NCBI GenBank assembly: GCA_044361745.1
Contig: JBIKIF010000002.1
Location: 23,119-87,118 of the forward strand
Origin: Holosporales bacterium
Lineage (GTDB): Bacteria; Pseudomonadota; Alphaproteobacteria; Holosporales; CAZGKG01
DNA: 64,000 bases
Reading direction: 5' to 3'
This document shows positions 2,969 through 58,346 of this stretch, one piece after another. A model generated the notes under the pieces. The model did no database searches. It worked only from the letters and a program-made list of their open reading frames with translations, and had not been told where the DNA came from. How positions within the stretch are numbered: position 1 is the stretch's first letter; each line of letters begins with the position of its first letter. The position numbers were made by a program, and so were the translations under genes.

Positions 2969-3424
2969 ATGAAGGAAGCATATTTTGATCTCGTGATGTT
3001 GCTGGAGCGCCTCCATCGGCTGTTTCTAGAAATTGCTAAATCGGAGCTTGATCGATTTAACATTCGCGATTTGAGTAGTATTCAAGCAATGATTCTTTAC
3101 AATATAGGGAAGTCCCAACTGACAGTTGGTGAAATTAGCAATCGTGGATATTATCTCGGATCGAATGTTTCTTATAACTTAAAGAAAATGATTGAGAACG
3201 GATACCTTCTGCAGGAGCAATCTCTGCATGATCGACGCTCTAGCCAGGTGCGCCTGACAAGCAAAGGAATGAAGGTCCTAGATAAGCTTGATACCACCTT
3301 GCAAAAACAAGTGGAGAGCTTGATATTTAATGGACTCAAAGATTCAGAAATCCAAATGATGCTCAGCAAAGGTCGCATTCTTGAATCCTTTTGGTCCAAC
3401 ATGTTGGTCAATCATTTTCGCTAA
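2969..3424 (+). CDS. MarR-family winged-helix transcriptional regulator
   Basis: 151 aa. The wHTH pattern LTVGEISNRGYYLGSNVSYNLKKMIENGYL…RRSSQVRLTSKG is typical of MarR-like regulators. An A+T-rich 310-nt leader lies upstream. Confidence 0.6.
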   Translation: MKEAYFDLVMLLERLHRLFLEIAKSELDRFNIRDLSSIQAMILYNIGKSQLTVGEISNRGYYLGSNVSYNLKKMIENGYLLQEQSLHDRRSSQVRLTSKGMKVLDKLDTTLQKQVESLIFNGLKDSEIQMMLSKGRILESFWSNMLVNHFR

Positions 3425-3479: not shown

Positions 3480-3628
3480 GAACGACGTCATCCCGGGGCT
3501 AGAGTTTCTGAGAGCTTTCTCGCTTTTGAAATCCTCCAGCCGGGATCTATTTGCAGACTATAGACAGCCTGGAAATGGATAACGATTCAAGGGGCACAGA
3601 AGCCATCCGAAGACTGCCTCTGCTGACC
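3480..3628 (+). repeat. Dispersed palindromic repeat, copy A
   Basis: Aligns by eye with the reverse complement of 31806-31983 over about 150 nt (GACGTCATCCCGGGGCTAGAGTTTCTGA…GCTTTTGAAA…CCGGGATCTATTTGCAGA…CCTGGAAATGGATAACG.TTCAAGG). It fills the convergent gap between the marR-like gene and gatB. Confidence 0.75.
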
Positions 3629-3636
3629 TTGCCATC

Positions 3637-5130
3637 TCAAGCTGAGCCTAATAATTCCTTTAAGAGCTTGTTCAGGAGCGCGGGGTTTCCCCGGCCTTGA
3701 CTGGCTTTCATCGCAAGGCCTACAAAGTACCCGAAGAGTTTGTCCTTCCCGGCGCGATACTCAGCCACTTTCCCAGGTTCGCTGTTGAGGATCTCTTGGA
3801 GCATTTTGAGAAGAGCCCCTTCATCGCTGACTTGTTGGAGTCCTCGTTCCGCAACAATAGTTTCAGGAGAGTCCCCGGTTTCCCACATAACGCTAAAAAC
3901 ATCTTTGGCAATTTTTCCGGAGATCACCCCATGGGCAATCATGTCCAGGAGCTTTGCAAGGGCCTCAGCAGAGACGGGGCTTTCGTCAACGGTTTTGCGC
4001 GACTCATTCAAAGCTCCTAAAAAGTCTCCAAGGATCCAATTCGCCAAGATTTTAGGGGAAGCGTGTGTGAGTGCTTGGGTGCCTTTTTCAAAAAATGCTG
4101 CGATTTCAAGTTCAGAAACTAAGACATCCGCGTCGTAGACAGAGAGGCCAAAGTCTTTGATGAGGCGGGCTTTCTTTTGATCTGGGAGCTCTGGAAGTTC
4201 CGCGTAAATCTCATCGACATATGCTTGGGTTAAAACCAAAGGGGGGAGGTCTGGGTCTGGGAAGTAGCGATAGTCTGCTGCATCTTCCTTGCTCCTCATA
4301 GACCGTGTTTCTCCCCTCGCTACGTCAAATAGCCGGGTTTCTTGGATGATCTCGCCCCCGTTTTCAAGAACATGGACTTGACGAGAGACCTCGTAGGAAA
4401 GGGCTTGCTGGAGGAAGCGAATGGAATTGAGGTTCTTGATCTCCACCCGTGTTCCTAAATCTGCGCCGGGTCGTCGGACAGAAACGTTGGCGTCTGCGCG
4501 AAGGCTTCCTTCCTCCATATTCCCATCGCAGGTCTCAAGACATCTGAGGAGGGCGCGCAATTTTTTGAAATAAAGAGCGGCCTCTTCAATGGTGCGCATA
4601 TCCGGTTCTGAGACAATTTCCATCAGGCCAACACCAGCGCGATTTAAGTCAATAGCAGTGGCGGAGGCGTAAAGATCATGGGAGCTTTTGCCCGCGTCCT
4701 GTTCCATATGAACGCGGGTGATGTGAACACGTTTTGAGGTTCCATCAGATCGCTCAATGTCAAGAAATCCTCCCTCCACAATCGGGCGTTCCAGCTGAGA
4801 AATCTGGTAGCCAGAGGGCAAGTCTGGATAAAAATAATTTTTGCGATCAAATGAGGAGACCAGATTAATGCGCCCTGACAAACCGAGGCCTGTTTTCACA
4901 GCTTGCCTGACACAAAATCCATTGAGAACCGGCAGCTGGCCTGGAAAGGCGGCATCTACATAAGAGACCTGGGTGTTCGGGGCGGCTCCGAACGCGGTGG
5001 GGGCGCGGGAAAATAATTTGGACTGGGAGATAATTTGGGCATGAACTTCAAGTCCGATCACAATCTCCCAAAACCCTGTTCCTCCCGGATATTGAGAGTC
5101 TTCATAGCGAAAAATGCGTTCATCGGCCAC
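3637..5130 (-). CDS. gatB: Asp/Glu-tRNA amidotransferase subunit B
   Basis: 497 aa, GatB-like throughout (…[13 protein letters not shown]…, YqeY-like C-terminal tail). It lies 5 nt downstream of gatA on the same strand. Confidence 0.95.
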
Positions 5131-27125: not shown

Positions 27126-27437
27126 CTAGACCGCCATGTGCATCACTTCTTGATAGGCTTGTAGGCTGGTGTTTACAAGAACGCTCAGTTGGTGGAGTGC
27201 TTCCTTCGCACGTAACACTTCCAAAGAGACGATTTGGGGATCTGCTTCACCCGCAGCTGCAGCCTTTCCATGGGCTTCCGAAGATTTTAACAAATCTCGT
27301 GTTTTTTTGCCAACGCCTTCAAGAAGGGTAGAAAAGCTTTCTCCATAAAGGGCGGAGGAGGCCTTTTGAGACCCCGGAAGGCTTCCCTGCAGATCAGGGA
27401 GCACTAAGGGGAAAGAGAGGGGGGGGATTGGGGTCAT
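27126..27437 (-). CDS. fliE: Flagellar hook-basal body protein FliE
   Basis: 103 aa. The C-terminus …LQAYQEVMHMAV matches the FliE consensus end (…YQEIMRMQV). Follows flgC with a 4-nt overlap. Confidence 0.8.
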   Translation of the reverse strand: MTPIPPLSFPLVLPDLQGSLPGSQKASSALYGESFSTLLEGVGKKTRDLLKSSEAHGKAAAAGEADPQIVSLEVLRAKEALHQLSVLVNTSLQAYQEVMHMAV

Positions 27438-27871
27438 GAAAGCCTCGCCATCATCAGGTTGTGGATACGTTGTTGCATTCCGCTGAGGACCTCAACGGTC
27501 CGCCCCATCATGAGGGTTGCCACATGGGCATCTTGGGCATCTACCGCCTCCATGTAAGGATTCACGTTTGGTTTTAAAACAATGCCACTGCTATCGGCTG
27601 CGGGATGGCTTGGGTCATACACTTTGATAAAGGGGGTTGGGTCCCGTCCAACGGATCGAACCACTGGCATGCGAATACCGGCCTCTCGCACCAGATGATC
27701 CTCAAACGCAACGGTACGTCTTTGGTAAGGCTTTCCCCCGGGGGTGACAGAGGTGGTCTGGGCGTTCACCATATTCTGGACGGCCACCTTGGACCGAAGG
27801 GCTTCGTTTTCCATGCCTCGTGCAAGAAGTGCTTGGGCCAAGGCAACGGGCCCTTGAACCGATGTCAGCAT
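27434..27871 (-). CDS. flgC: Flagellar basal-body rod protein FlgC
   Basis: 145 aa with …VAVQNMVNAQTT…PYQRRTVAFE…VYDPSHPAADSSG.V..PNVN… as in FlgC. Confidence 0.8.
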   Translation of the reverse strand: MLTSVQGPVALAQALLARGMENEALRSKVAVQNMVNAQTTSVTPGGKPYQRRTVAFEDHLVREAGIRMPVVRSVGRDPTPFIKVYDPSHPAADSSGIVLKPNVNPYMEAVDAQDAHVATLMMGRTVEVLSGMQQRIHNLMMARLS

Positions 27872-27886
27872 TTCCGATTCCTTTCT

Positions 27887-28258
27887 TTATTTTTTGAGCA
27901 CCAATTCAAGCATTTGCACTTGAGATTGGATAATGTTGGTCATTTGAAGGTGGCTGAGATTCGCTTCATTGGCTTCACGCAATTCTTCCCTATAGGAAAC
28001 GGTGTTGCCATTGAGGGTTTTTTCTCCTGTTACTGCCGTTTTGACTGCAAAACCTCCCCATGTTTCCCCCTTGAAAGAGAGGTGCTTTGGATCTGTTCTG
28101 CGCATGTCTTGCGGCTGCAGAGAATCGTCAAAACGCAGAGGCGCCAGACGGACCGCCTGGTATTTGGGCACATTCAGAAAAGCCATGTTTTGAGAGGCAA
28201 CCTTGAGCGCTTGGGAATCAAACGCCATACGATGGGCCGCCATTTGGACAATATTCAT
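27887..28258 (-). CDS. flgB: Flagellar basal-body rod protein FlgB
   Basis: 123 aa. N-terminal rod motif …SQNMAFLNVPKYQA… and …NGNTVSYREE…. First gene of a flgB-flgC-fliE unit. Confidence 0.75.
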   Translation of the reverse strand: MNIVQMAAHRMAFDSQALKVASQNMAFLNVPKYQAVRLAPLRFDDSLQPQDMRRTDPKHLSFKGETWGGFAVKTAVTGEKTLNGNTVSYREELREANEANLSHLQMTNIIQSQVQMLELVLKK

Positions 28259-28371
28259 TTGAGCAAATGCCTATGTGATTTTTTTCTTGACCTTATGGCA
28301 GCGGGATTAAGAAAATGTAAAACTTTTTCAGGGATCTCTAATCCCACTTTTCATGATGAAAGAGTTTTGGA

Positions 28372-28629
28372 ATGACAAAAAGCAATCTTCTCAAAAGCAT
28401 ATTTGAGCATCAAAAAATGGTTTCCCAGGAAATGCGTACTCATTTAGGCGTTCATCTGACAGAAGGTCTGAAAGACCTTTTTGAGGAGAATGAAACCCTT
28501 CTGGAGGAACTTGAAAACCAGGACACTGTCACACCTGACGATCTCTCAAGGCTGCAAAATCTTTGGGAGAGACTGACGCACCATATTGGAAAAACCTACA
28601 CAAATTTAGAAAAATCTACGCAGAGTTAA
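28372..28629 (+). CDS. Hypothetical small acidic helical protein heading the fliO-fliP unit
   Basis: 85-aa ORF lying 12-40 nt upstream of fliO, divergent from flgB. No family recognised. Its composition resembles small export chaperones, but that is speculation. Confidence 0.3.
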   Translation: MTKSNLLKSIFEHQKMVSQEMRTHLGVHLTEGLKDLFEENETLLEELENQDTVTPDDLSRLQNLWERLTHHIGKTYTNLEKSTQS

Positions 28630-28668
28630 AAATCAAGAACATTGGAACAAATTGTAGAAAGGTATGCA

Positions 28669-28956
28669 ATGGATGAAATTTCTGTGCCCCTTCTTTTGAA
28701 GGCGTTTTTAAGTCTTGGCTGTACTCTTATTTTGCTCTGGGTCGGTGGCTTTCTTTTGCGAAAGTTTTCCGTTTTCAGGTCCCGCCAGAAAGTCACATCT
28801 CTGACCCGCATTCTTGAGACCCAAACACTGGATACCCAGCGCAAACTCATGGTTTTTTCATCCCCCTTTGGACAAGGGCTGATTCTTCTCTCCCCAAGGG
28901 GCGATCAAGTTGTGATGTTCGCCCAGACTCCAGTCCTTGAGGATTCTCTCGGATGA
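28669..28956 (+). CDS. fliO: FliO-like flagellar export protein
   Basis: Single TM helix (LLLKAFLSLGCTLILLWVGGFLL), then …RILETQTLDTQRKLMVFSSPFGQGLILLSP… as in FliO. ATGA overlap with fliP. Confidence 0.5.
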   Translation: MDEISVPLLLKAFLSLGCTLILLWVGGFLLRKFSVFRSRQKVTSLTRILETQTLDTQRKLMVFSSPFGQGLILLSPRGDQVVMFAQTPVLEDSLG

Positions 28957-29699
28957 ATTCCTCTCCTCCCTGGCTCAGTCGTTGGACCATTCTCCTTTTG
29001 ATTGTCTGTCTGTTCTTTATCAGCGACCCTTGTCAGGCAGCACAATTTTCTCTTGATCTGGGGGAAGGGTCCCTTTCGGCTAAGCTTTTACAACTGATGG
29101 CCTTGATCAGCGTTCTCAGTTTGGCCCCCTCCATTCTCATGATGGTGACCTCTTTTACGCGGATTGTCGTTGTCATGTCTCTGCTCAGGCATGCTTTGGG
29201 TCTTGGGCAATCGCCCCCCCAATCCATTATCATTAGCTTGTCTCTTTTTCTCACGCTCTTTGTGATGCAACCCACGTTTGAAAAGGCGTATGAGCAAGGG
29301 CTTCATCCGTATTTATCTGAGGACATTTCTGAGGAAGAGGCCCTTCGGAAAACGTCCGAGCCTTTTCAAACCTTTATGCTCCAGCATACACGGCCTAAAG
29401 ATTTGGAAATGCTTCTCACCATCAGCAATACTCCCAAACTCAAAACCCCCGAGGAAACACCCTATCGCGCCCTGATTCCCGCCTTTATGCTCAGTGAACT
29501 TCGTCGTGCGTTTGAAATCGGTTTCCTGATCTTTATCCCCTTTCTGATTATTGATTTGGTAGTGGCCTCTATTTTAATGTCTATGGGGATGATGATGCTT
29601 CCCCCGGTCATGCTGTCTTTACCGTTTAAGATTATTTTCTTTGTGCTGATTGATGGCTGGTCACTCCTTGCAGGAAGCCTTGTCCGCAGTTATAGTTAG
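28953..29699 (+). CDS. fliP: Flagellar type III export apparatus protein FliP
   Basis: 248 aa with FTRIVVVMSLLRHALGLGQSPPQSIIISLSLFLTLFVMQP and a conserved C-terminal half. Confidence 0.9.
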   Translation: MNSSPPWLSRWTILLLIVCLFFISDPCQAAQFSLDLGEGSLSAKLLQLMALISVLSLAPSILMMVTSFTRIVVVMSLLRHALGLGQSPPQSIIISLSLFLTLFVMQPTFEKAYEQGLHPYLSEDISEEEALRKTSEPFQTFMLQHTRPKDLEMLLTISNTPKLKTPEETPYRALIPAFMLSELRRAFEIGFLIFIPFLIIDLVVASILMSMGMMMLPPVMLSLPFKIIFFVLIDGWSLLAGSLVRSYS

Positions 29700-31281: not shown

Positions 31282-31365
31282 ACCTTCCAAAGTTCTCTGT
31301 TGGTCCGTATTTTGCAAAGTTCTTAACGGATACTTTTTGTTAAAAAATACGTGGAGGATTGTCTC

Positions 31366-31632
31366 ATGTCTAATCGTTCTTTGAATTTAAAAATTTTGAA
31401 ATCTTTGTCCCTAGGGGTTGTTTTGCTAGCGGGTGCGGGGGCTGTGTCCACAGATGGATGGGGTGCACCGCCTGCTGGTGGTGGTGGTCGTGGTCTTAAG
31501 GGATTTATAGGAAATAGAATGGGTGGAAAATTTCAAAGCGACACGAGTTTAAAAAGAAAAAAAGATAAAAGTGATTATGAAACGGAGAAAAGAGCTGCGG
31601 TAGAAGCTTTCAAAGCAGGGCGTCCAAAATAA
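31366..31632 (+). CDS. Hypothetical small secreted basic protein
   Basis: 88 aa from the ATG at 31366. Signal peptide (…LSLGVVLLAGAGA), a glycine-rich stretch (PPAGGGGRG), and a lysine-rich tail with LKRKKDK. Confidence 0.35.
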   Translation: MSNRSLNLKILKSLSLGVVLLAGAGAVSTDGWGAPPAGGGGRGLKGFIGNRMGGKFQSDTSLKRKKDKSDYETEKRAAVEAFKAGRPK

Positions 31633-31670
31633 GATAATTAACAAACTTTAAAAATAAGAAGACATTCTAT

Positions 31671-31701
31671 CTGGAGATTGTTCAAATCTCCAGGGTGTTT
31701 T
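31671..31701 (+). terminator. Rho-independent terminator
   Basis: CTGGAGATT-GTTCA-AATCTCCAG is a perfect 9-bp stem, followed by GGTGTTTT. Confidence 0.55.
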
Positions 31702-31805
31702 AAATTTTTCTCAAAGCCCCTCCGTCCAAGCGTCTGTAGGCCCATGGCCTCAGGCGCAGGAGTGTGAGGGGATTTTTTAGGTCTCATACTCAGTTGCGTA
31801 CAGTT

Positions 31806-31983
31806 GGAGTTGTCCTGCCGGCCTAAGATGATGCCCAAGCTTTGCTTGGGGGAGACCCTTGAGCCGCTATCCATTTCCACGCCGTCTATGGTCTGCCGCC
31901 TACGTTCTGCCAATGGATCCTGGATGGAGCGTTTTAAAAGCGCGCAAGCCTTCAGAAACTCTAGGCCTCGGGATGACGTGATC
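31806..31983 (-). repeat. Dispersed palindromic repeat, copy C (longest copy)
   Basis: Its reverse complement aligns with copy A over the 5' two thirds and with copies B and F over the 3' half (…TGGAAATGGATAGCGGCTCAAGG…CCCAAGCAAAGCTTGGGCATCATCTTAGGCCGGCAGGACA). Confidence 0.8.
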
Positions 31984-32107
31984 TTGTCAAAATTTTAGGG
32001 TCATTTGATCAAAGGTTAACTCTAGGTCTCTGTATCCCCTCAAAATTTCGAGGTTGGACCTTTTTTTGCGTCCATTGATTGAAAGACACTCATGAAAGGA
32101 AACGACC

Positions 32108-32401
32108 ATGGTTCACCCTTTTTTTAAAAAAATCATTTTGAAGTCAGCCCTCTTTGTCCTCTTCCTCGGTGGATTAGGGATGAATGAGGTTTCTGCAGTG
32201 GCCTCTCGTATGGGAAAATTAGAGATTGTTAGAAAAGTGGCCTTGGCGCCGTTCAGGGCTGTAAGGGTGGGGAGCAGAAACCTTGCGAAGGGTACTGCGA
32301 ATAAATTGCGGCTTAGAAAAAAGCGCGTCGATCAACAAGCAGCGAACAAAGAAACAGAAAAATTAAAAGGTCAACAGGTTGGATTTCCCCAGAAATCTTA
32401 A
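32108..32401 (+). CDS. Hypothetical small secreted basic protein
   Basis: 97 aa. Signal peptide (…ALFVLFLGGLGMNEVSA) and a K/R-rich mature part containing LRLRKKRV. Confidence 0.35.
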   Translation: MVHPFFKKIILKSALFVLFLGGLGMNEVSAVASRMGKLEIVRKVALAPFRAVRVGSRNLAKGTANKLRLRKKRVDQQAANKETEKLKGQQVGFPQKS

Positions 32402-32510: not shown

Positions 32511-32661
32511 GTCCTGTTGAATCTGGGGTTTGGTCTGAGAGCGGGTTATGTTCAAGGAAATCATTTAACCCCATGCCTCCGCCCGGCTCTCTTCGTCCCT
32601 CAGCCCCCACAGGGGGCGTCGGGGTCAGCTTTCTTTTAAGAAATTTCCGGATGACCACGTC
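32511..32661 (-). repeat. Probable degenerate copy D of the dispersed repeat
   Basis: Shares the end blocks (GACGTGGTCATCCGG on the reverse strand; CTCTCAGACC…CAGGAC) and weak internal similarity. Much more diverged than copies A, B, C and F. Confidence 0.3.
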
Positions 32662-34087: not shown

Positions 34088-34259
34088 GATCCTTCAGGGT
34101 CCCAAAGCCTGTTGTTCAAAAGCGCTCTCTTTTAAAAAGAGAGCGCTTTTTTGATGTTCAAAACCCCTCCGGGATATTTGACATTTCAAGCCTGAAAAAG
34201 ATTATTTGAAGATTTCTTGGTGTCCCTTAAGGTTCTCTACTCTCTGCCGCAAAAAAACC
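34088..34259 (+). repeat. Diverged copy G of the dispersed repeat (contains a terminator-like hairpin)
   Basis: ATCCTTCAGGG…TTGTTCAAAAGC…CCTCCGGGATATTTGACA…GCCTGAAAAAGATTA…TTGAAG…CTTGG…CTCTGCCGCAAAAAAACC parallels copies A and F block by block. Confidence 0.5.
34118..34152 (+). terminator. Rho-independent terminator after rplY
   Basis: AAAAGCGCTCTCTTTT/AAAAGAGAGCGCTTTTTT forms a long perfect stem followed by a T-run. The flanking A-run makes it potentially bidirectional. Confidence 0.6.
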
Positions 34260-38479: not shown

Positions 38480-40222
38480 ATGCTGAGAGCCCATTCTTTT
38501 TTCATCAAACCTCCCCTGACGCCGGTCGCTCCTAAGGTCAGCCTTTTGACAAAAAAAGATTTCGTCGTTTCTCAAAAAGCGCAAGAAGAGATGGGAGTTG
38601 ACCCTGAAACCTATTGTGCGCATGTCAACCAGGGATGGCAAGGGCGTATTGATCCTTTAGTCACCAAAATAGATCTGGCAAAGACGCAGGATCAACTGCT
38701 GTATGATTTTCAAAACATAATCCATGAAACGCGGCAAACCTTAGAGCGCTTGAGGATCGAAACAGGACGAATCCATACCCAAGTGATCTGTGAAGACACG
38801 GGAAACTCTGGCGAAAAATATGTGCGAATCGAGCCTCATGGAGGCATTTTATTCCCACCGTTTACTTTGGAGATTCTCACGCTTGCTCCAGAACAGACGA
38901 TGGGCAATCCTTCAGCTGCGCCCATTGAAGCTCTCAGTCTGGAGGCCCCTCTTGGCTTCACCGATGGACAAACCCTTTATGTGAATGAAAAACCTCTCCC
39001 TTTAGGCCAAGGGATGACCTTGAGGAGACTCACGTTTCTTTTAGGGCAGCATTTAAGGGGGGTCGCTCACGTTCACTGCCTCACCCTCCAAGAGCCCATG
39101 GCCGAAGAGAGCCCAGCGAGCGCCTCTGCCTCAGGAAGACCTGGTCTATACAAGCTCAGTGTGAAGCCCATGAATCCAAGCAAGCCCATTGTTTTCCGTG
39201 ACGAGAGTGCTGGAGAGGTTCTTCGATGTCTCGGGCTCTCTGACGAAAGAGTTCCACTGGCCTCCGGAGATGCTGTTTTTAAAGTTGATGGAATGCAGAT
39301 GACCCGGTCCTTGAACAAAATCGAAAACATTTTTCCTGGCTTATCCTTGAAGCTTTTGAGCCCAACGGGCGGGGCCGTTCTGAAAATTTCAAGTGCGCCC
39401 GCTGTAGAAAACATTAAACAACTGATGTCCGACCTCTTGGAATCGTTTCGCGTCATTCAACGAATGGTGGCTCAGTCTCTCCCGATAGATGGAGAAAGCT
39501 CTATTAAGCACTGTCGTTTTCTTCTTGATTTATCGAGAGAGCTTGGTCTTTCCAGTGATCGTTCTTTTGGAGCAAGCATTCCAGCAAGAACAATGGGTAT
39601 TGACCGGCAGGGGGGCGTCCTTTTGTTTCAGCACCATCTATTTGATCAAGCAGTTCAGGACAACCCTGCCCAAGTCAAAAATTTTTTTAGACGCACAGAA
39701 GAGGTTGACCTGCCAGATATGTTATTGATAAAGGCACCCAAGGCATTTGTCGGGGAGATTCAGGTACAATTAAGCAAAACAGCTGGACACATCAAAGGGT
39801 TTCTTTCCTGTGGGAAAGAGGGTCTCTCGCCCATTGAAGGGCGGATGGAGGGCACGATTTTATATGGCCCTAGGGGGCATCCCCTTGAAAAACTTGAAAT
39901 TGTAGTGGGTCCCAGCGTTCGTGATTCTCTCAAAGAGGGAGACCCAATCGTTGCGATTGTCACTCTAGGAGAGGGTTTTCTTGATTTTTTTGATCGTTTT
40001 CTGGACGCTCATTTTCAAAAAATGAACAAAGAGAGGGAATGCACTGATGTCGGCCTGAAAAAAACTCTTGCAGGCCTTGAGTTGATTCAAAAAGAATCGG
40101 ATAAAAAAAAGAAAGAGCTCAAGGAGCAATCTGCCAATTTGCAAGCGCAGTATGGGCAGCTCCTTGTGACACGAAAAATTGAGGAGAATATGATGAAGAC
40201 GATTTTGGGGCTTAAGGACTAG
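38480..40222 (+). CDS. Hypothetical protein, possible divergent flagellar filament cap FliD
   Basis: 580 aa. The central block AVFKVDGMQMTRSLNKIENIFPGLSLKLLSPTGGAVLKISS…VENIKQLMSDLLESF follows the FliD pattern (x-NG-x-I-x-x-SN-x-I-x-x-x-x-G-V-T-L-x-L, then a fv..yN-like helix). Coiled-coil C-terminus. Similarity was judged by eye only. Confidence 0.4.
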   Translation: MLRAHSFFIKPPLTPVAPKVSLLTKKDFVVSQKAQEEMGVDPETYCAHVNQGWQGRIDPLVTKIDLAKTQDQLLYDFQNIIHETRQTLERLRIETGRIHTQVICEDTGNSGEKYVRIEPHGGILFPPFTLEILTLAPEQTMGNPSAAPIEALSLEAPLGFTDGQTLYVNEKPLPLGQGMTLRRLTFLLGQHLRGVAHVHCLTLQEPMAEESPASASASGRPGLYKLSVKPMNPSKPIVFRDESAGEVLRCLGLSDERVPLASGDAVFKVDGMQMTRSLNKIENIFPGLSLKLLSPTGGAVLKISSAPAVENIKQLMSDLLESFRVIQRMVAQSLPIDGESSIKHCRFLLDLSRELGLSSDRSFGASIPARTMGIDRQGGVLLFQHHLFDQAVQDNPAQVKNFFRRTEEVDLPDMLLIKAPKAFVGEIQVQLSKTAGHIKGFLSCGKEGLSPIEGRMEGTILYGPRGHPLEKLEIVVGPSVRDSLKEGDPIVAIVTLGEGFLDFFDRFLDAHFQKMNKERECTDVGLKKTLAGLELIQKESDKKKKELKEQSANLQAQYGQLLVTRKIEENMMKTILGLKD

Positions 40223-48358: not shown

Positions 48359-49327
48359 ATGCCAGAGAATCAGGTTCACCCAGCACTCCTGAAGCTCTCT
48401 AACGCTGTGGGTTTTGAACCTCCCCAGGGGGCCGATCCATACACCACTCTGAAGGCCTTCAATGATTTCTCCCAAACCCATTTCATTTTAGATCAACCAG
48501 GAACACAGAAGCTCCAAGAAGATTTTGCTCTTGGGGGTCGTTTTGCGGATAGAGAATCTGAGATCACAGCCGTCCTCAAACAGCTGGGGCTGGTAGGTTC
48601 TTTGAGTCCGACAGAGAAATCTTACGATCAGACGCTCGTTTTAGGGGCCACTTTTGAGGTCATGAACGCATCTCGGTTTGCATTTCTTGAAAAGAAGGTG
48701 TGGGATCAGGAGATTGAAATGGGGGATGTTTATCCCCTGACCAGCGAACGACCTCTCTACACGGACCCCACAAGTCGGCACACCCGCACCCATGAACGCC
48801 AAGATGTGGATCTATTTTGCCAGAAGCTTAAGATCGATCCCCAAACTATCCAAACGGAAGAGGATGCAGCTCAGTTATCCATTTGGGGCCTCCCCAAAGC
48901 ATTGCAGAACCGCATCAAAAGTCCTTCTGAGTTGGTGGTGGGGAAGCGTTCAGATGGGTCGAGGGCCAACACCCAAGACACCATTGAACGCTGGATCAGT
49001 CATGAGGGGGTTCCAATCCTTCGGGGGAAAAAAATCCTTGTGATTACAGACAATCCATTCATCTCTCGTCAGAGAGAGGATTTTTGGAATGTGCTCAAAA
49101 AGCATGGCCTCTCAGAGACAGAGATCACCATCGAGTGTGTGGGCTATGATCTGGGAGATGTTTTACGGCCTTCTGGGAAGAACGGGGTCCCGGACGCCAC
49201 CTTCAAACAGGTTGCGCTGTTCCGACGACTCGATAACCTCGCCCGCTGGATCTATACTTGGCTCCAAGGCCATCCACCTGCTCAGCAAAATCTCTCAAGC
49301 CTCTCAAGCGATCGCAGCGGCGATTGA
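48359..49327 (+). CDS. Hypothetical protein, possibly DUF218/YdcF-like
   Basis: Blocks YDQTLVLGA…, SRANTQDTIERWI and KILVITDNPFISRQREDF loosely follow the DUF218 pattern (VLG…, S.NT.EN…, ilVTs.fHm.Ra). The ORF is open from GTG 48326. Its 3' end abuts repeat copy B (starts 49324, at the stop codon); the upstream tail shows only weak repeat similarity. Confidence 0.35.
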   Translation: MPENQVHPALLKLSNAVGFEPPQGADPYTTLKAFNDFSQTHFILDQPGTQKLQEDFALGGRFADRESEITAVLKQLGLVGSLSPTEKSYDQTLVLGATFEVMNASRFAFLEKKVWDQEIEMGDVYPLTSERPLYTDPTSRHTRTHERQDVDLFCQKLKIDPQTIQTEEDAAQLSIWGLPKALQNRIKSPSELVVGKRSDGSRANTQDTIERWISHEGVPILRGKKILVITDNPFISRQREDFWNVLKKHGLSETEITIECVGYDLGDVLRPSGKNGVPDATFKQVALFRRLDNLARWIYTWLQGHPPAQQNLSSLSSDRSGD

Positions 49328-49455
49328 AGCTCCCATCCGGGATCTATTTGCACATCATAATCCGCCTTGAAATGGATAGCGAGGCCTGGAAATGGATAGT
49401 GGCTCAAGGTTCGCCTCCAAGAAAAGCTTGGGCATCCTCTCAGGCCGTCATGACA
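49324..49455 (+). repeat. Dispersed palindromic repeat, copy B (5' third missing or buried in the CDS; internal 20-nt duplication)
   Basis: CCATCCGGGATCTATTTGCA…CCTTGAAATGGATAGCGAGGCCTGGAAATGGATAGTGGCTCAAGG…CCAAGAAAAGCTTGGGCATCCTCTCAGGCCGTCATGACA aligns with copies A, C and F. Confidence 0.75.
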
Positions 49456-49482
49456 TCGATAAGGGGCTGGTAGGGCAGCTCT

Positions 49483-50853
49483 TTAAGGTGTCACCGCCCT
49501 CAGGACTCCATCGGCAAAATGGAGTTGGAGTGGGGTTTGGGGTGGGACATTTTGGGAAGACGTGAGCAGACCGCCCTCATCCAGGCGGACGGCACAAAAC
49601 CCCCGGTCTAGGGTGCGTTTGTAGGAGAGGCTTTCAAGCAGTTGACTGGCGGTTTGAAAGCGCCGTTTCTCCGCTATGAAAAAAGCCTGAAGGCTTTGGG
49701 TGAGCCGGTGGGTGAGGGTGTCCAGCCGCAAGCGGGCCCGTTCGCAAGCCCATTCAGGGGTTTGAAGGCGACTGAACAGAAGGTCTGCTCTTTGTTGGAA
49801 ACGGCGCCAGAGAGGGTCTGAGGCCCTGAGGAGGCGTGCACTGAGGTCATCCAGCTGTTGGTCTCGAAGCCCAAGCAAGGCGTCCGCAGATCCAAAAGTT
49901 CGGGCGAACAGCTGTAGGCGCAAAGACAGGCGCTCTAGCGTGCGGTAAAGGGTGTTTTGAGCGCGCCCTTCAAGGGCGCTTAAGGTTTCCAAAAGCCTCT
50001 CCCGAACCGGCACAACCATTTCTGCGGCCGCTGTGGGCGTTGGTGCACGCACGTCGGCCACATAATCGACCAGGGTGGTGTCTGTTTCATGGCCGATAGC
50101 AGAGACCACCGGAATCTGACTGGCGAATACGGCACGGACAATCTGTTCGCTGTTAAAGACCATGAGGTCTTCGCTGCTGCCTCCCCCACGGGCGAGAATG
50201 ATTACATCAGGCCTGGGACCCAAGGCCTCAGACCAGCGGTTCATCCCGTCGAGGGCCAGGCAGATTTCAGAGATGGCCGAGTCACCTTGTACATTCACAG
50301 GCCATAAGATCACCCGGGAAGGGAGGCGCTCTCGCAGGCGGTGGAGGATATCTTGAATGACGGCACCAGTGGCAGACGTGATCACCCCAATGCGGAGGGG
50401 CAGAAGGGGCAGCGTCTTTTTATGGGCGAGTTCAAACAGACCTTCCGCCCGGAGTTTTGCTTTTAGCTGTTCCAGAAGCTTGAGGAGAGCCCCTTCCCCG
50501 GTCAGAGACACATGATCTACCACCAGCTGGTACTTAGAGCGTAAAGGGTAAGTGGTGATCCTCCCTCTGCACACAACTTCTGCCCCCTCTTGAAGGCAGT
50601 GTTCTGCCCGCCCCGCGTTCCCACGCCAGCACACCGCATCCAGAACCGCAGTGTCATCTTTGAGGGCAAAATAGAGGTGACCGGAGGTGTGCTTTTTTGG
50701 GGCCACCACCTCTCCCCGGACACAAATGTCCCGAAATCCTTCTTCCACAGAGCGCTTCAAAATCCTCGACAAATCTCCCACAGAAAATTCTGGTCGACTG
50801 GGGAAATCCTGGAGGTCCGGTGCGTCTTCCGCGCTTCCAAAATATTTATCCAT
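49483..50853 (-). CDS. xseA: Exodeoxyribonuclease VII large subunit
   Basis: 456 aa. N-terminal OB-fold region (…VRGEV…GHLYFALKD…), a catalytic core (…GVITS..GA…D…RGGGS.EDL..FN), and a coiled-coil tail. Confidence 0.9.
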   Translation of the reverse strand: MDKYFGSAEDAPDLQDFPSRPEFSVGDLSRILKRSVEEGFRDICVRGEVVAPKKHTSGHLYFALKDDTAVLDAVCWRGNAGRAEHCLQEGAEVVCRGRITTYPLRSKYQLVVDHVSLTGEGALLKLLEQLKAKLRAEGLFELAHKKTLPLLPLRIGVITSATGAVIQDILHRLRERLPSRVILWPVNVQGDSAISEICLALDGMNRWSEALGPRPDVIILARGGGSSEDLMVFNSEQIVRAVFASQIPVVSAIGHETDTTLVDYVADVRAPTPTAAAEMVVPVRERLLETLSALEGRAQNTLYRTLERLSLRLQLFARTFGSADALLGLRDQQLDDLSARLLRASDPLWRRFQQRADLLFSRLQTPEWACERARLRLDTLTHRLTQSLQAFFIAEKRRFQTASQLLESLSYKRTLDRGFCAVRLDEGGLLTSSQNVPPQTPLQLHFADGVLRAVTP

Positions 50854-52868: not shown

Positions 52869-53138
52869 TTAGATAAATAAATCTGCATGGGTGCCTGTTC
52901 TTTCACAAATGATACAACCCTCTATGGGTTTGTAAATGAGCAGCCAATCCGGTTCAACATGGCATTCGCGGCGCCCTCCATAGGATCCGGAAAGCCCATG
53001 GTCTTTGTGTTTCACCGGAAGCGGTTGCGCGCTCAGAATCCGCTCCATCACCTTTTGAATTTTTGTTAAATCTTTGCCGTGTTTCTGAGCGAGTTTCATA
53101 TCCCTTTTAAATTGTCCAGTGTAAACAAAATCAAACAT
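52869..53138 (-). CDS. yafQ: Type II toxin, YafQ/RelE-family mRNA interferase
   Basis: 89 aa. …YTGQFKRDMKLAQKHGKDL…LPVKHKDHGLSGSYGGRRECHVEPDWLLIYK…ERTGTHADLF parallels E. coli YafQ almost block for block. Confidence 0.85.
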   Translation of the reverse strand: MFDFVYTGQFKRDMKLAQKHGKDLTKIQKVMERILSAQPLPVKHKDHGLSGSYGGRRECHVEPDWLLIYKPIEGCIICERTGTHADLFI

Positions 53139-53140
53139 TG

Positions 53141-53395
53141 TTAAAGAGTCTTCAAAAAATCTTGGACTGTTTCACCGCGAGAGAGATCCTTCTCTTGATC
53201 CGTGGTTTCAAAGGTTTTTCGGGTCAGAGAATTCGGAATTTTAACATCAAAGGGAAGACCATGATGGAGCCGGACTTGGTGAAGAAAAAGCTGTATAGCG
53301 TCTGACATGGAAAGCCCCAACGTTCCGAGTAAAGTCTCCACCTCCGTCTTGAGATGGGGATCAATACGTGCACGTACAGTTTCTGTCTTGCTCAT
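53141..53395 (-). CDS. dinJ: Type II antitoxin, DinJ/RelB family
   Basis: 84 aa. …VRARIDPHLKTEVETLLGTLGLSMSDAIQLFLHQV…GLPFDVKIPN… parallels DinJ. Its stop lies 2 nt before the yafQ start. Confidence 0.85.
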   Translation of the reverse strand: MSKTETVRARIDPHLKTEVETLLGTLGLSMSDAIQLFLHQVRLHHGLPFDVKIPNSLTRKTFETTDQEKDLSRGETVQDFLKTL

Positions 53396-54364: not shown

Positions 54365-54424
54365 ATAGTGAAAGGAATCTCTCTATGGATAAGAATAGTG
54401 AAAGGAATGTTTCTATGAATAAGA
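54365..54424 (+). repeat. Tandem 30-nt duplication covering the RBS and start codon
   Basis: ATAGTGAAAGGAATCTCTCTATGGATAAGA / ATAGTGAAAGGAATGTTTCTATGAATAAGA are 27/30 identical by manual count. This gives in-frame ATGs at 54385 and 54415. Confidence 0.8.
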
Positions 54425-55143
54425 TATTTTGGTTTTTAGGGTTGTGTTTGTCCACCGTTGGTGTGACGGGCGCTCTTCAAGCAGGTCAGAACCCCTCAAA
54501 ACAGGCCCCCTCAAAACAGGCTGAGGATTCAGAGTGGTCTTCTTCAGAGGAGGATTTTTCAGATTCGTCTTCTTCAGAAGAGGATGTTCCTGATGAACCC
54601 GTGGATCCATCTGAAGGGGCCGCTGCTGCTGCTCCAGCAAGGCTGAGTGTACGGGATCGAGTGCGAATGTTTGAACAAGGACCTGCAACCTCTGAGGAAA
54701 AACCCATGCGATCTGCGGCGGAATTGTCACGGGATCAAGTGCGAATGTTTGAACAAGGATCTGCAACCTCTGAGAGAAAACCCATTCGATCTGCGTCGGA
54801 ATTGTCTCCAGACCAGATTAATGTCATCGCTAGAGGTTTTCAGGAAGGTATTTTGGCAGGAGCGGACCTGATCAACCAACGGCGCGCGTTGCAAAAACAA
54901 TTGCAAGCTAAGCGGGCGGCCTTTCAAGCTGAGGATGCAGTCAAACAAGCTGAAATGGCCTCTGTTCAGGGGGGGTGGGGTTTCGCAAGCGCTTTAGATA
55001 GTATTTGGGGAGGCAAAAAAGCCGCTTTTCAGAAGTGGCGTGCTAGGGAGATGGCCCTCATCGAGAGTTTAGAACAACAGATTTCTGATATTGAGAGGGA
55101 TATAGAAACGCTTCAAAGAAAAACGCGTCAAAGAGGGGGATAA
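54415..55143 (+). CDS. Hypothetical secreted repeat protein (acidic Ser/Glu tract, 26-aa tandem repeat, coiled-coil tail)
   Basis: From the second ATG the N-terminus is a clean signal peptide (MNKIFWFLGLCLSTVGVTGALQA). It is followed by SSSEEDFSDSSSSEEDVPDEP, 2x (R)D.VRMFEQG.ATSE.KP.RSA.ELS, and a heptad-like C-terminus. The ORF is also open from 54385. Confidence 0.45.
   Translation: MNKIFWFLGLCLSTVGVTGALQAGQNPSKQAPSKQAEDSEWSSSEEDFSDSSSSEEDVPDEPVDPSEGAAAAAPARLSVRDRVRMFEQGPATSEEKPMRSAAELSRDQVRMFEQGSATSERKPIRSASELSPDQINVIARGFQEGILAGADLINQRRALQKQLQAKRAAFQAEDAVKQAEMASVQGGWGFASALDSIWGGKKAAFQKWRAREMALIESLEQQISDIERDIETLQRKTRQRGG
54652..54807 (+). repeat. 78-nt tandem repeat x2 inside the secreted-protein gene
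   Basis: Units 54652-54729 and 54730-54807 differ at about 7 positions by manual count. They are in frame and encode the VRMFEQG…ELS repeat. Confidence 0.85.
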
Positions 55144-57272: not shown

Positions 57273-57496
57273 TGGGGAGGCTGGGGTCTTTGCTGTCCTT
57301 TTGTGGGCGGTGGCTAGGGGTATTTGCAATCGGGTTTTATCAAATCGTTCTGAGGGGACACTTGACCGGGGGCTGTCGCTTCACCCCCAGCTGTTCTATC
57401 TATACTAGGGAGCAAATCCTTCGCCATGGTCTGATGAAGGGAATCGTGTGCGGTTTGAGGCAGCTGTCTCAGTGCCATCCTTGGGGACGTGGTTAG
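57269..57496 (+). CDS. yidD: Membrane protein insertion efficiency factor YidD
   Basis: …FYQIVLRGHLTGGCRFTPSCSIYTREQILRHG…CHPW… The ATG overlaps the rapZ stop (ATGATG). Confidence 0.8.
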   Translation: MMGRLGSLLSFCGRWLGVFAIGFYQIVLRGHLTGGCRFTPSCSIYTREQILRHGLMKGIVCGLRQLSQCHPWGRG

Positions 57497-57517
57497 TCAT
57501 TCATCCGTTTATTCAAT

Positions 57518-57638
57518 GGTTTTTGTGCCGGCCGGGAGATGATGCCCAAGCTTTTCTTGGCCACGAGCCTTGAGCGGTATCCATGTCCAGGCCATGGATG
57601 TTTTGCTCAATGCATCTCTAGCCCTGAGATGGGTAATG
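57518..57638 (-). repeat. Dispersed palindromic repeat, copy F (short form, internal deletion)
   Basis: The plus strand reads …TGCCGGCCGGGAGATGATGCCCAAGCTTTTCTTGGCCACGAGCCTTGAGCGGTATCCATGTCCAGGCC…ATCTCTAGCCCTGAGATGGGTAATG, nearly collinear with copy C. It covers the stop codon and last codons of the deacetylase gene. Confidence 0.75.
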
Positions 57639-58346
57639 TTCCAGGGTGCGAAAAATATATCCTTTGTTTTTGAGGGTCCTGATGAGAAGGCGGAGCTCCG
57701 CACCATCCGGAGCCGTTCTGAACATCTGATCGTGGGCTAAAATAACCACATGGCCTGGCGTAAAAGATTTTTTCACTTCACCGTCAATCTGTTGCACTAA
57801 GCGCGTCACGGATTCATTGGAATCCCTCGTTTTTGAATGATGGCTCCATTCAATATCCCAACCAAAAACAGTGTAACCGTTCTCCTTCAAAAGCTGGGAA
57901 GAAGTTTTTCCACTTGGAATGTCGTACTTTGACCGAGAGCCCACTTCCCACATATTCCGTCCAGGAAGGCGGGCAATTTTTGAGGAAATCCCTAAAATTT
58001 TTTGATTCTTATTAAAATCTTTTAAAACATTCTGTGGGTCTTGATAATAACGAATATAGTGGTTATTGGCATGGGAAAAGCTATGATTTCCAATCAAAAC
58101 AAGCGGATTTTTTTCTCCTCGTTCCACAGACTGCCGCTGATCTTTTCCGTACAAATGACTGCCCACAAGAAACAGAGTGACTTCGACGCTTTCGGAATCC
58201 ACAGCTTCCAAAATCTCTGACATCCCCCCCAGCGGGCCATCATCAATGGTCAGATAAATATAGACAGGCGGCAAAAACTCATCAGCGACGGCTGAGCGGA
58301 TGATGCTGACTAAAAAAAACGAAAAAATTAAATTTAAAAATTTCAC
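57618..58346 (-). CDS. Polysaccharide deacetylase (NodB-homology domain), secreted
   Basis: Signal peptide MKFLNLIFSFFLVSIIRSAVA. NodB motifs TIDDGP and GNHSFSH. Confidence 0.75.
   Translation of the reverse strand: MKFLNLIFSFFLVSIIRSAVADEFLPPVYIYLTIDDGPLGGMSEILEAVDSESVEVTLFLVGSHLYGKDQRQSVERGEKNPLVLIGNHSFSHANNHYIRYYQDPQNVLKDFNKNQKILGISSKIARLPGRNMWEVGSRSKYDIPSGKTSSQLLKENGYTVFGWDIEWSHHSKTRDSNESVTRLVQQIDGEVKKSFTPGHVVILAHDQMFRTAPDGAELRLLIRTLKNKGYIFRTLEHYPSQG

Follow-up and report, generated by a model that had tools for sequence, protein, structure and literature searches.

A small, apparently old family of dispersed non-coding repeats in a Holosporales-like alphaproteobacterium

The stretch of DNA analysed here, a 64-kb window of one contig, contained four copies of a short repeat, called A, C, B and F. 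A fifth full-length copy, L013, was found on the same contig, ~12 kb upstream of the window. The five copies apparently form a real, undescribed and rather ordinary family, which is low in copy number, old, non-coding, immobile and neutral. This small, old family of dispersed non-coding repeats probably represents the decayed remains of a non-autonomous selfish element, similar to a MITE or to ERIC. No role as a terminator, a structured RNA or a protein-coding gene could be detected for the element itself.

The host is predicted to be an isolated, uncultured Holosporales-like alphaproteobacterium, as indicated by its XseA protein. The closest XseA relative was 57% identical and labelled Holosporales bacterium, and more distant matches were labelled Rhodospirillales. 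Exact protein matches put the window on a metagenomic contig of 179-181 kb from freshwater samples.

Copies of the repeat and their architecture

Copies were located by nhmmer profile searches. A profile built from the four copies considered clear in the preliminary description of this DNA matched exactly at A, B, C and F, with E values from 1e-17 to 1e-43, and matched nothing else in the 64 kb at E≤10. A second, improved profile was built from nine sequences and gave a best E value of 1e-47. Copy A spanned positions 3485-3637 on the plus strand (model positions 2-168, E 2.9e-35). Copy C, at 31808-31978 on the minus strand (E 1.7e-47), had the full length of ~170 nt and was the best representative of the family. 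Copy B was matched in two pieces at 49295-49459 on the plus strand (E 1.5e-16 and 2.3e-23), and copy F, internally shortened, at 57517-57659 on the minus strand (E 2.4e-31). The five independent copies (four in the window, and L013) measured 143-171 nt.

Pairwise Smith-Waterman comparison with shuffled sequences gave z-scores of 5.7-41 among A, B, C and F, and of 5.7-73 when L013 was added. A window-wide repeat search paired 3536-3585 with 49333-49382 and 31826-31864 with 57537-57575, and four inverted pairs connected the sites at 3.5, 31.9, 49.4 and 57.5 kb. These similarities, well beyond chance, argue for homology of the four window copies and L013. The shared sequence blocks listed in the preliminary description were confirmed in A, B, C and F. 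Its total of six copies, however, was reduced to four. The best scores of the other two, G (34088-34259) and D (32511-32661), against the true copies were 15-25, inside the shuffle range (maxima 22-27). Neither gave an nhmmer match at E≤10 with the four-copy profile or at E≤0.1 with the nine-sequence profile.

A possible solo terminus at 39000-39018 on the minus strand, with 16 of 19 positions matching the 5′ terminus, was rejected as a chance match; it lies antisense in a FliD-like gene and shows no further similarity. Flagellar genes for FliE, FliP and the FliD-like cap protein are located at 27126-29699 and 38480-40222.

Wider scans of species-representative genomes, JGI metagenomes and viral contigs were performed with the 20-nt hairpin block. 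The species-representative genomes (GTDB), a set that does not include the source genome, yielded five chance matches only, and the viral contigs no match. The JGI metagenomes yielded an orthologue of copy B (L011, from a ~96% identical strain), the new copy L013 and one chance match. L013 was placed through its neighbouring dps gene, and a thiolase gene follows on the same strand, in the order dps, element, thiolase. In the fragmentary assembly of the sample containing L011 and L013, two of the four known pattern-bearing copies turned up in the scan, and no unknown ones. Given this assembly and the ~100 kb of genome examined, the small number of recovered copies suggests a low-copy family. 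The family had no match in plasmid or phage collections, and nothing relevant was found in the literature on repeats in Holosporales or on MITEs in Alphaproteobacteria.

The 5′ boundary of the element is GTCATCCCG, with unrelated DNA upstream of it in C, L013 and A, and the 3′ boundary is ...GGCCGnCAGGACA. Among the paralogues, the best-conserved blocks are CCATCCGGGATC and GCCTGGAAATGGATAnCGGCTCAAGG, here called the core. These blocks are invariant across all paralogues, and the termini decay. C and L013 have two GCAGAnCnTAGAC units, the other copies one. A CCAAG-NAAA-GCTTGG hairpin is found in B, C and F. Copy A is well conserved in its 5′ two-thirds, and its 3′ third has decayed, with the hairpin and the terminus lost. 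Copy B has a diverged 5′ end. In addition, alignment of orthologous copies revealed in B a tandem duplication of a 20-nt module (GCCTTGAAATGGATAGCGAG / GCCTGGAAATGGATAGTGGC; 49364-49403, plus strand). The window strain and L011 share this duplication of the TGGAAATGGATAG module, which L019/L020 lack. The 3′ module of copy C is wholly different between strains with 97% identical flanks. The element is a mosaic of modules.

Coding potential, folding and gene context

Two observations indicate that the element is non-coding: orthologous copies differ by indels of 1, 1, 2 and 20 nt, and no protein matched any of the frames. For the latter, a six-frame concatenated translation of three copies was compared with 5.8 billion proteins. 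It returned nothing at E≤10, a weak negative, as short peptides cannot reach significance against so many proteins. Frames starting at internal ATG codons, on either strand, were shifted between ~96% identical strains, when B was compared with B in L019 and F with F in L019. This agrees with the preliminary description, which reported that no reading frame is conserved and that copy A has an in-frame TAA in GGATAACG.

The repeat had been called palindromic, with ends forming imperfect inverted repeats, a view that found no clear support. An ungapped inverted-repeat search detected no terminal repeat in any copy. When the two ends were aligned with gaps, the score was reached by 456 of 2000 shuffles, and the self-complementarity of the whole element equalled the shuffle mean. 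A weak hint of a terminal inverted repeat was seen in a fixed end-to-end register only (11/15 in L013). The 3′ end of copy B matched the 5′ consensus, with a score reached by 37 of 2000 shuffles.

Folding energies of the two full-length copies, both strands, gave z-scores of +0.57, −0.50, −2.24 and −1.91 relative to shuffles, and their minimum-energy folds differed. The RNAalifold consensus of nine sequences was −3.3 kcal/mol, with a covariation term of +0.32. For the terminal stem and internal hairpin, 65.6% of the cells were paired, a value reached by 479 of 500 shuffles. Within the named helices, one pair had a double change, which was not above shuffles; pairs break instead of covarying. 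An alternative 5′ stem had no variation at all. The internal hairpin had been described as kept in B, C and F. These window copies do have it, but sister strains do not always retain it: GCTTGG is changed to GCGCGG without compensation in the L019 copy F, and in copy C of L025 a different sequence stands in its place. No Rfam family was detected at its gathering score across the window, nor at E≤10 over copy C or L013.

The conserved part of the copies has no G+C-rich stem followed by a T-run, and no terminator-like site was detected in A, B and C. Copy F has a weak hairpin at 57578-57600, which is specific to F. The suggested role as a bidirectional terminator or RNA-stabilising structure found no support, considering the lack of terminator sites, the shuffle-like fold energies, the lack of covariation and the uncompensated loss of the hairpin. 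A contrast between element-bearing junctions without terminators and element-free junctions with them was also considered and rejected. There was no clean pattern, as element-free convergent junctions had strong, weak or no terminators.

A different structure is found between the L25 gene and a convergent ORF. There, 34118-34150 forms a perfect hairpin with a 15-bp stem and A-runs/T-runs on either side (AAAAGCGCTCTCTTTTAAAAAGAGAGCGCTTTTTT). It is a predicted bidirectional intrinsic terminator of textbook form, and this is what the discarded "copy G" contains.

Copy A is located between a marR-like gene (stop at 3424) and the convergent gatB, and its end coincides with the gatB stop codon (3637-3639, minus strand). 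Copy B overlaps the 3′ end of an unknown ORF (48326-49327), whose TGA stop (49325-49327) lies within the element block GATTGAAG, and faces xseA as the convergent partner (stop at 49483). At copy F, the block GGGCTAGAG provides the TAG stop of a polysaccharide-deacetylase gene (57618-57620, minus strand), and the convergent partner is yidD (stop at 57496). Because B and F hold the stop codon of the upstream gene, they are necessarily co-transcribed with its 3′ end. Copy C occupies a co-directional junction, between the plus-strand ORFs 31351-31632 and 32108-32401, the former with its own terminator at 31670-31694, ahead of copy C. Beside copy C, the region 31480-31719 is hypervariable. Between strains with 97% identical flanks, no alignment was possible for the C-terminal half of ORF 31351-31632, a lysine-rich tail, or for the DNA that follows.

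For the five copies, the junctions are convergent in three cases (A, B and F), co-directional in two (C and L013) and divergent in none. It had been stated that five of six copies lie in convergent junctions. The fraction is three of four in the window, with C between two plus-strand ORFs, and three of five with L013. On a rough gene map of the window, ~9 of ~59 junctions are genuinely convergent, and the convergent enrichment is modest (p ~0.01-0.03). Such a location bias is the expected outcome of purifying selection against insertions near promoters.

Strain comparison and insertion sequences

Both strain lineages (93-97% identical) carry the element at sites A, B, C and F, and no presence/absence polymorphism between these strains was found at the four sites. 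Divergence between the strains was ~3-7% plus indels for the elements, and 3-7% for the mostly coding flanks. Copy A differed by ~6.5% from its orthologue in L028, with flanks at 2.7%. The 3′ part of copy C was unalignable between strains, with flanks at 2.8%. Nothing in these comparisons points to recent mobility of the copies or to purifying selection on them. The 57% XseA relative had no synteny at xseA and no element copies in 21 kb, and no empty-site comparison was found there. Direct repeats that could represent a target-site duplication were absent from the element boundaries in the flanks of C, L013, A and B.

No cognate insertion sequence (IS) with matching ends was found. One IS could be reconstructed for comparison, an IS4/IS5-family element (DUF4096 and DDE_Tnp_1) that adjoins copy C in sister strains. 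Its end is GCCTCGTGTAG and it inserts at CTAG, as shown by an empty site in the window at ~40215 compared with L019. Its size, estimated from the overlap of two fragments, is ~840 bp. The IS was present at no fewer than three sites in the GROS21 strains, that is, at least at L025 11454-12077, L019 19689-20322 and L033 14396-14721. It was absent from the window strain, and GROS21 assembly contigs end inside it. One of the three observed insertions is in the CTAG of the 5′ terminus of copy C (L025/L027). CTAG is ~five-fold depleted in the window, with 48 sites observed and 247 expected from base composition. Repeat copies A, C and F account for 3 of these 48 sites. With that share, the chance of one hit in three insertions is ~18%, and no special targeting of C has to be assumed.

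Smith-Waterman comparison with the right end of the IS revealed a similar stretch of 31 nt, abutting the 5′ end of copy C (GATCAAATGACCCTAAAATTTTGACAAGATC; 31980-32010, minus strand). Its score was 25, with a shuffle maximum of 22 (0 of 300 shuffles), and is marginal as one of 12 tests. This stretch may be the scar of an IS end, and would not be general to the family. The flanks of A, B and F, all 3′ flanks and the rest of the window showed no IS similarity or remnant at the DNA and protein level. A sigma-70-like promoter match (TTAACC-16-TAAAAT; 32019-31992, minus strand) lies inside the IS-end-like flank and is directed into the 5′ end of copy C; it occurs at C only. Transposase fragments of IS1595 and IS630 type (PF13358, DDE_3) were seen nearby, without their ends.

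The strains differ at several other loci. A RelB/YafQ toxin-antitoxin pair is located between COX2 and COX1 in the window strain (52869-53395, minus strand), and the GROS21 strains lack it, with COX2 directly followed by COX1 (L019 7088-9615). A gene for a microbial PARG-like protein (poly-ADP-ribose glycohydrolase; 46568-47641, plus strand) is another feature of the window strain that the GROS21 strains lack; here, the L019 alignment skips ~1 kb (window 46537-47530). ORF 54385-55143 (plus strand), without a family match, has tandem repeats at 54365-54806, consisting of two 78-nt units and two pairs of 30-nt units. The encoded protein is 252 aa long in the window strain but only 205 aa in GROS21 strains, and the repeat number thus appears to vary between strains. 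Upstream of the window start, the window strain has a head module of GTA or prophage type at L007 2913-6283 (S78 protease, major capsid and head-tail connector). At the position of this module, a GROS21 strain has an IS1595-type transposase fragment instead (L028 15663-17240).

Origin of the family and its meaning

As a decayed selfish element, the family would have arisen from a unit of ~170 nt that spread to a handful of sites, through a transposase acting in trans or another copying mechanism. Copies beside promoters would have been lost, leaving survivors at gene 3′ ends, mostly convergent ones. Since their spread, the copies would have been immobile and drifting neutrally. They would have lost or duplicated internal modules, exchanged 3′ modules and accumulated substitutions and indels of 1-2 nt. 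Two of them would have replaced the last codons of the upstream gene. The preliminary description had offered, as one option, a mobile miniature element that persists solely where its insertion does no damage. This idea fits, as the repeat is non-coding, diverges at least as much as its flanks and is not found in a divergent (promoter) junction.

Two points count against a decayed MITE. One is the greater conservation of the core (GCCTGGAAATGGATAnCGGCTCAAGG and CCATCCGGGATC) between paralogues, which could reflect constraint. The other is that transposition hallmarks are absent. The likeness to MITE or REP-type elements noted earlier is no more than a resemblance: there is no target-site duplication and no matching IS or transposase was found, the terminal inverted repeat is weak, and all four sites are occupied, leaving no empty ones.

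We consider it rather unlikely that the family is a host-maintained repeat of the REP, BIME or ERIC type. Such a repeat would be spread or kept by a domesticated enzyme (e.g. RAYT) or by recombination, and its core would be bound, as DNA or RNA, by a host factor at gene ends. An invariant core in all paralogues with decaying termini agrees with this, as do the modular structure with duplicated units, known from BIME and ERIC variants, the fixation at orthologous sites and the position at gene 3′ ends, transcribed in B and F. However, a short REP-like palindrome is missing, the ends are not significantly complementary, and the divergence between strains is not below that of the flanks. The copy number also seems very low, with known copies only in the metagenome scan, and neither RAYT nor another candidate enzyme was seen in the ~100 kb examined. 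More doubtful still is a functional RNA element of 3′ UTRs, with a role in signalling transcript ends, stabilisation or processing, or in shielding convergent genes from RNA polymerase collisions. The enrichment in convergent junctions would suit this function, junctions A and B have no other terminator-like site, and B and F are co-transcribed with the gene whose stop codon they contain. Against it, no copy has a stem and T-run in its conserved part, fold z-scores range from +0.6 to −2.2 with different folds for the full-length copies, and the weak consensus fold has pairs that break rather than covary. Copy F of L019 has lost the hairpin, and copy C of L025 has other sequence in its place. 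Furthermore, two of the five copies are outside convergent junctions, and element-free convergent junctions often have no terminators either. A long shot is that the invariant core (CCATCCGGGATC ... GCCTGGAAATGGATAnCGGCTCAAGG) is a putative module recognised by a host factor that binds DNA or RNA. The repeat would then have been recruited at gene ends to insulate converging transcription units, in a reduced, endosymbiont-like genome poor in canonical terminators, and the termini would decay since only the core matters.

Debris of the IS5 family, with the copies as scars of IS ends or as a preferred IS target, is a very improbable origin. The IS terminus GCCTCGTG beside the CTAG target resembles the CTAG followed by GCCTCGGG at the 5′ end of the element, an IS copy sits exactly in the CTAG of copy C (L025/L027), and the flank of copy C resembles the right end of the IS. 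Yet the shared octamer is in the orientation of flanking DNA, which is wrong for a MITE terminus, and the similarity goes no further. A size of ~840 bp leaves no room for the element body. The IS-free flanks of A, B and F and all 3′ flanks, the lack of other IS remnants in the window and the chance level of the hit in copy C also speak against it. An IS-derived origin was rejected once the IS ends and the empty site had been reconstructed, on the basis of octamer orientation, size and flanks. Hardly credible is a set of related small protein genes running along the reverse strand, with a peptide MMPKLxLxxxLEPxSIS... Reverse-strand translation of the aligned copies did reveal a frame that begins with ATG, has a similar N-terminus and is open in C, L013, B and the L019 copy F. 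Already unlikely for its shift in the window copy F and the L019 copy B, that is, between ~96% identical strains, this frame encodes peptides that stop after 19-50 residues at unrelated positions. The ribosome-binding spacing is unusable, and no database protein matches any frame.

In how it behaves, the family comes nearest to ERIC-like or decayed MITE-like repeats, although, checked feature by feature, it does not fit the definition of a MITE, a REP or a terminator. With ERIC (IRU) it shares a unit length of 100-200 nt, the lack of coding capacity, a place in transcribed intergenic DNA at gene ends, and size variants produced by loss or gain of defined internal modules. Other common features are the fixation at orthologous sites, the lack of a known transposase and an uncertain function. 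The host class is a different one, there is no sequence relationship, and the apparent copy number is much lower here. ERIC is also a clear imperfect palindrome, whereas the repeat of this Holosporales-like host is not significantly self-complementary. Like MITEs, for example Correia/NEMIS of Neisseria, the copies are small, non-coding and dispersed, may have weakly inverted termini, are enriched where insertion is harmless and can fuse with and terminate neighbouring ORFs. Unlike MITEs, they lack a target-site duplication, a significant terminal inverted repeat and a cognate IS whose ends match, and their presence does not vary between the strains.

The RPE of Rickettsia, compared by description, resembles the repeat in its related intracellular alphaproteobacterial host, its length of ~100-150 nt, its age and immobility and its ability to overlap coding sequence. 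RPEs are typically found in frame inside genes, adding peptide segments. The repeat here overlaps only the last codons and stop of two genes (B and F), and no in-frame internal insertion was seen. REP, BIME and REPIN repeats with RAYT are likewise intergenic, at gene 3′ ends, mosaic or modular and often between convergent genes. In contrast to them, the repeat has no REP palindrome of 20-40 nt and no inverted doublet or long hairpin, and the ~100 kb examined contained no RAYT gene.

The repeat is undescribed and belongs to a poorly sampled Holosporales-related lineage, and it matters little beyond annotation. Knowing it prevents spurious calls of small ORFs over its copies; one such call is a 57-aa gene at copy B. 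It also explains two genes that end inside repeat sequence, and marks places of assembly breaks or strain differences in this lineage. Should the core be a functional gene-end signal, the family would be a modest addition to what is known of transcript-end organisation in endosymbiont-like alphaproteobacteria.
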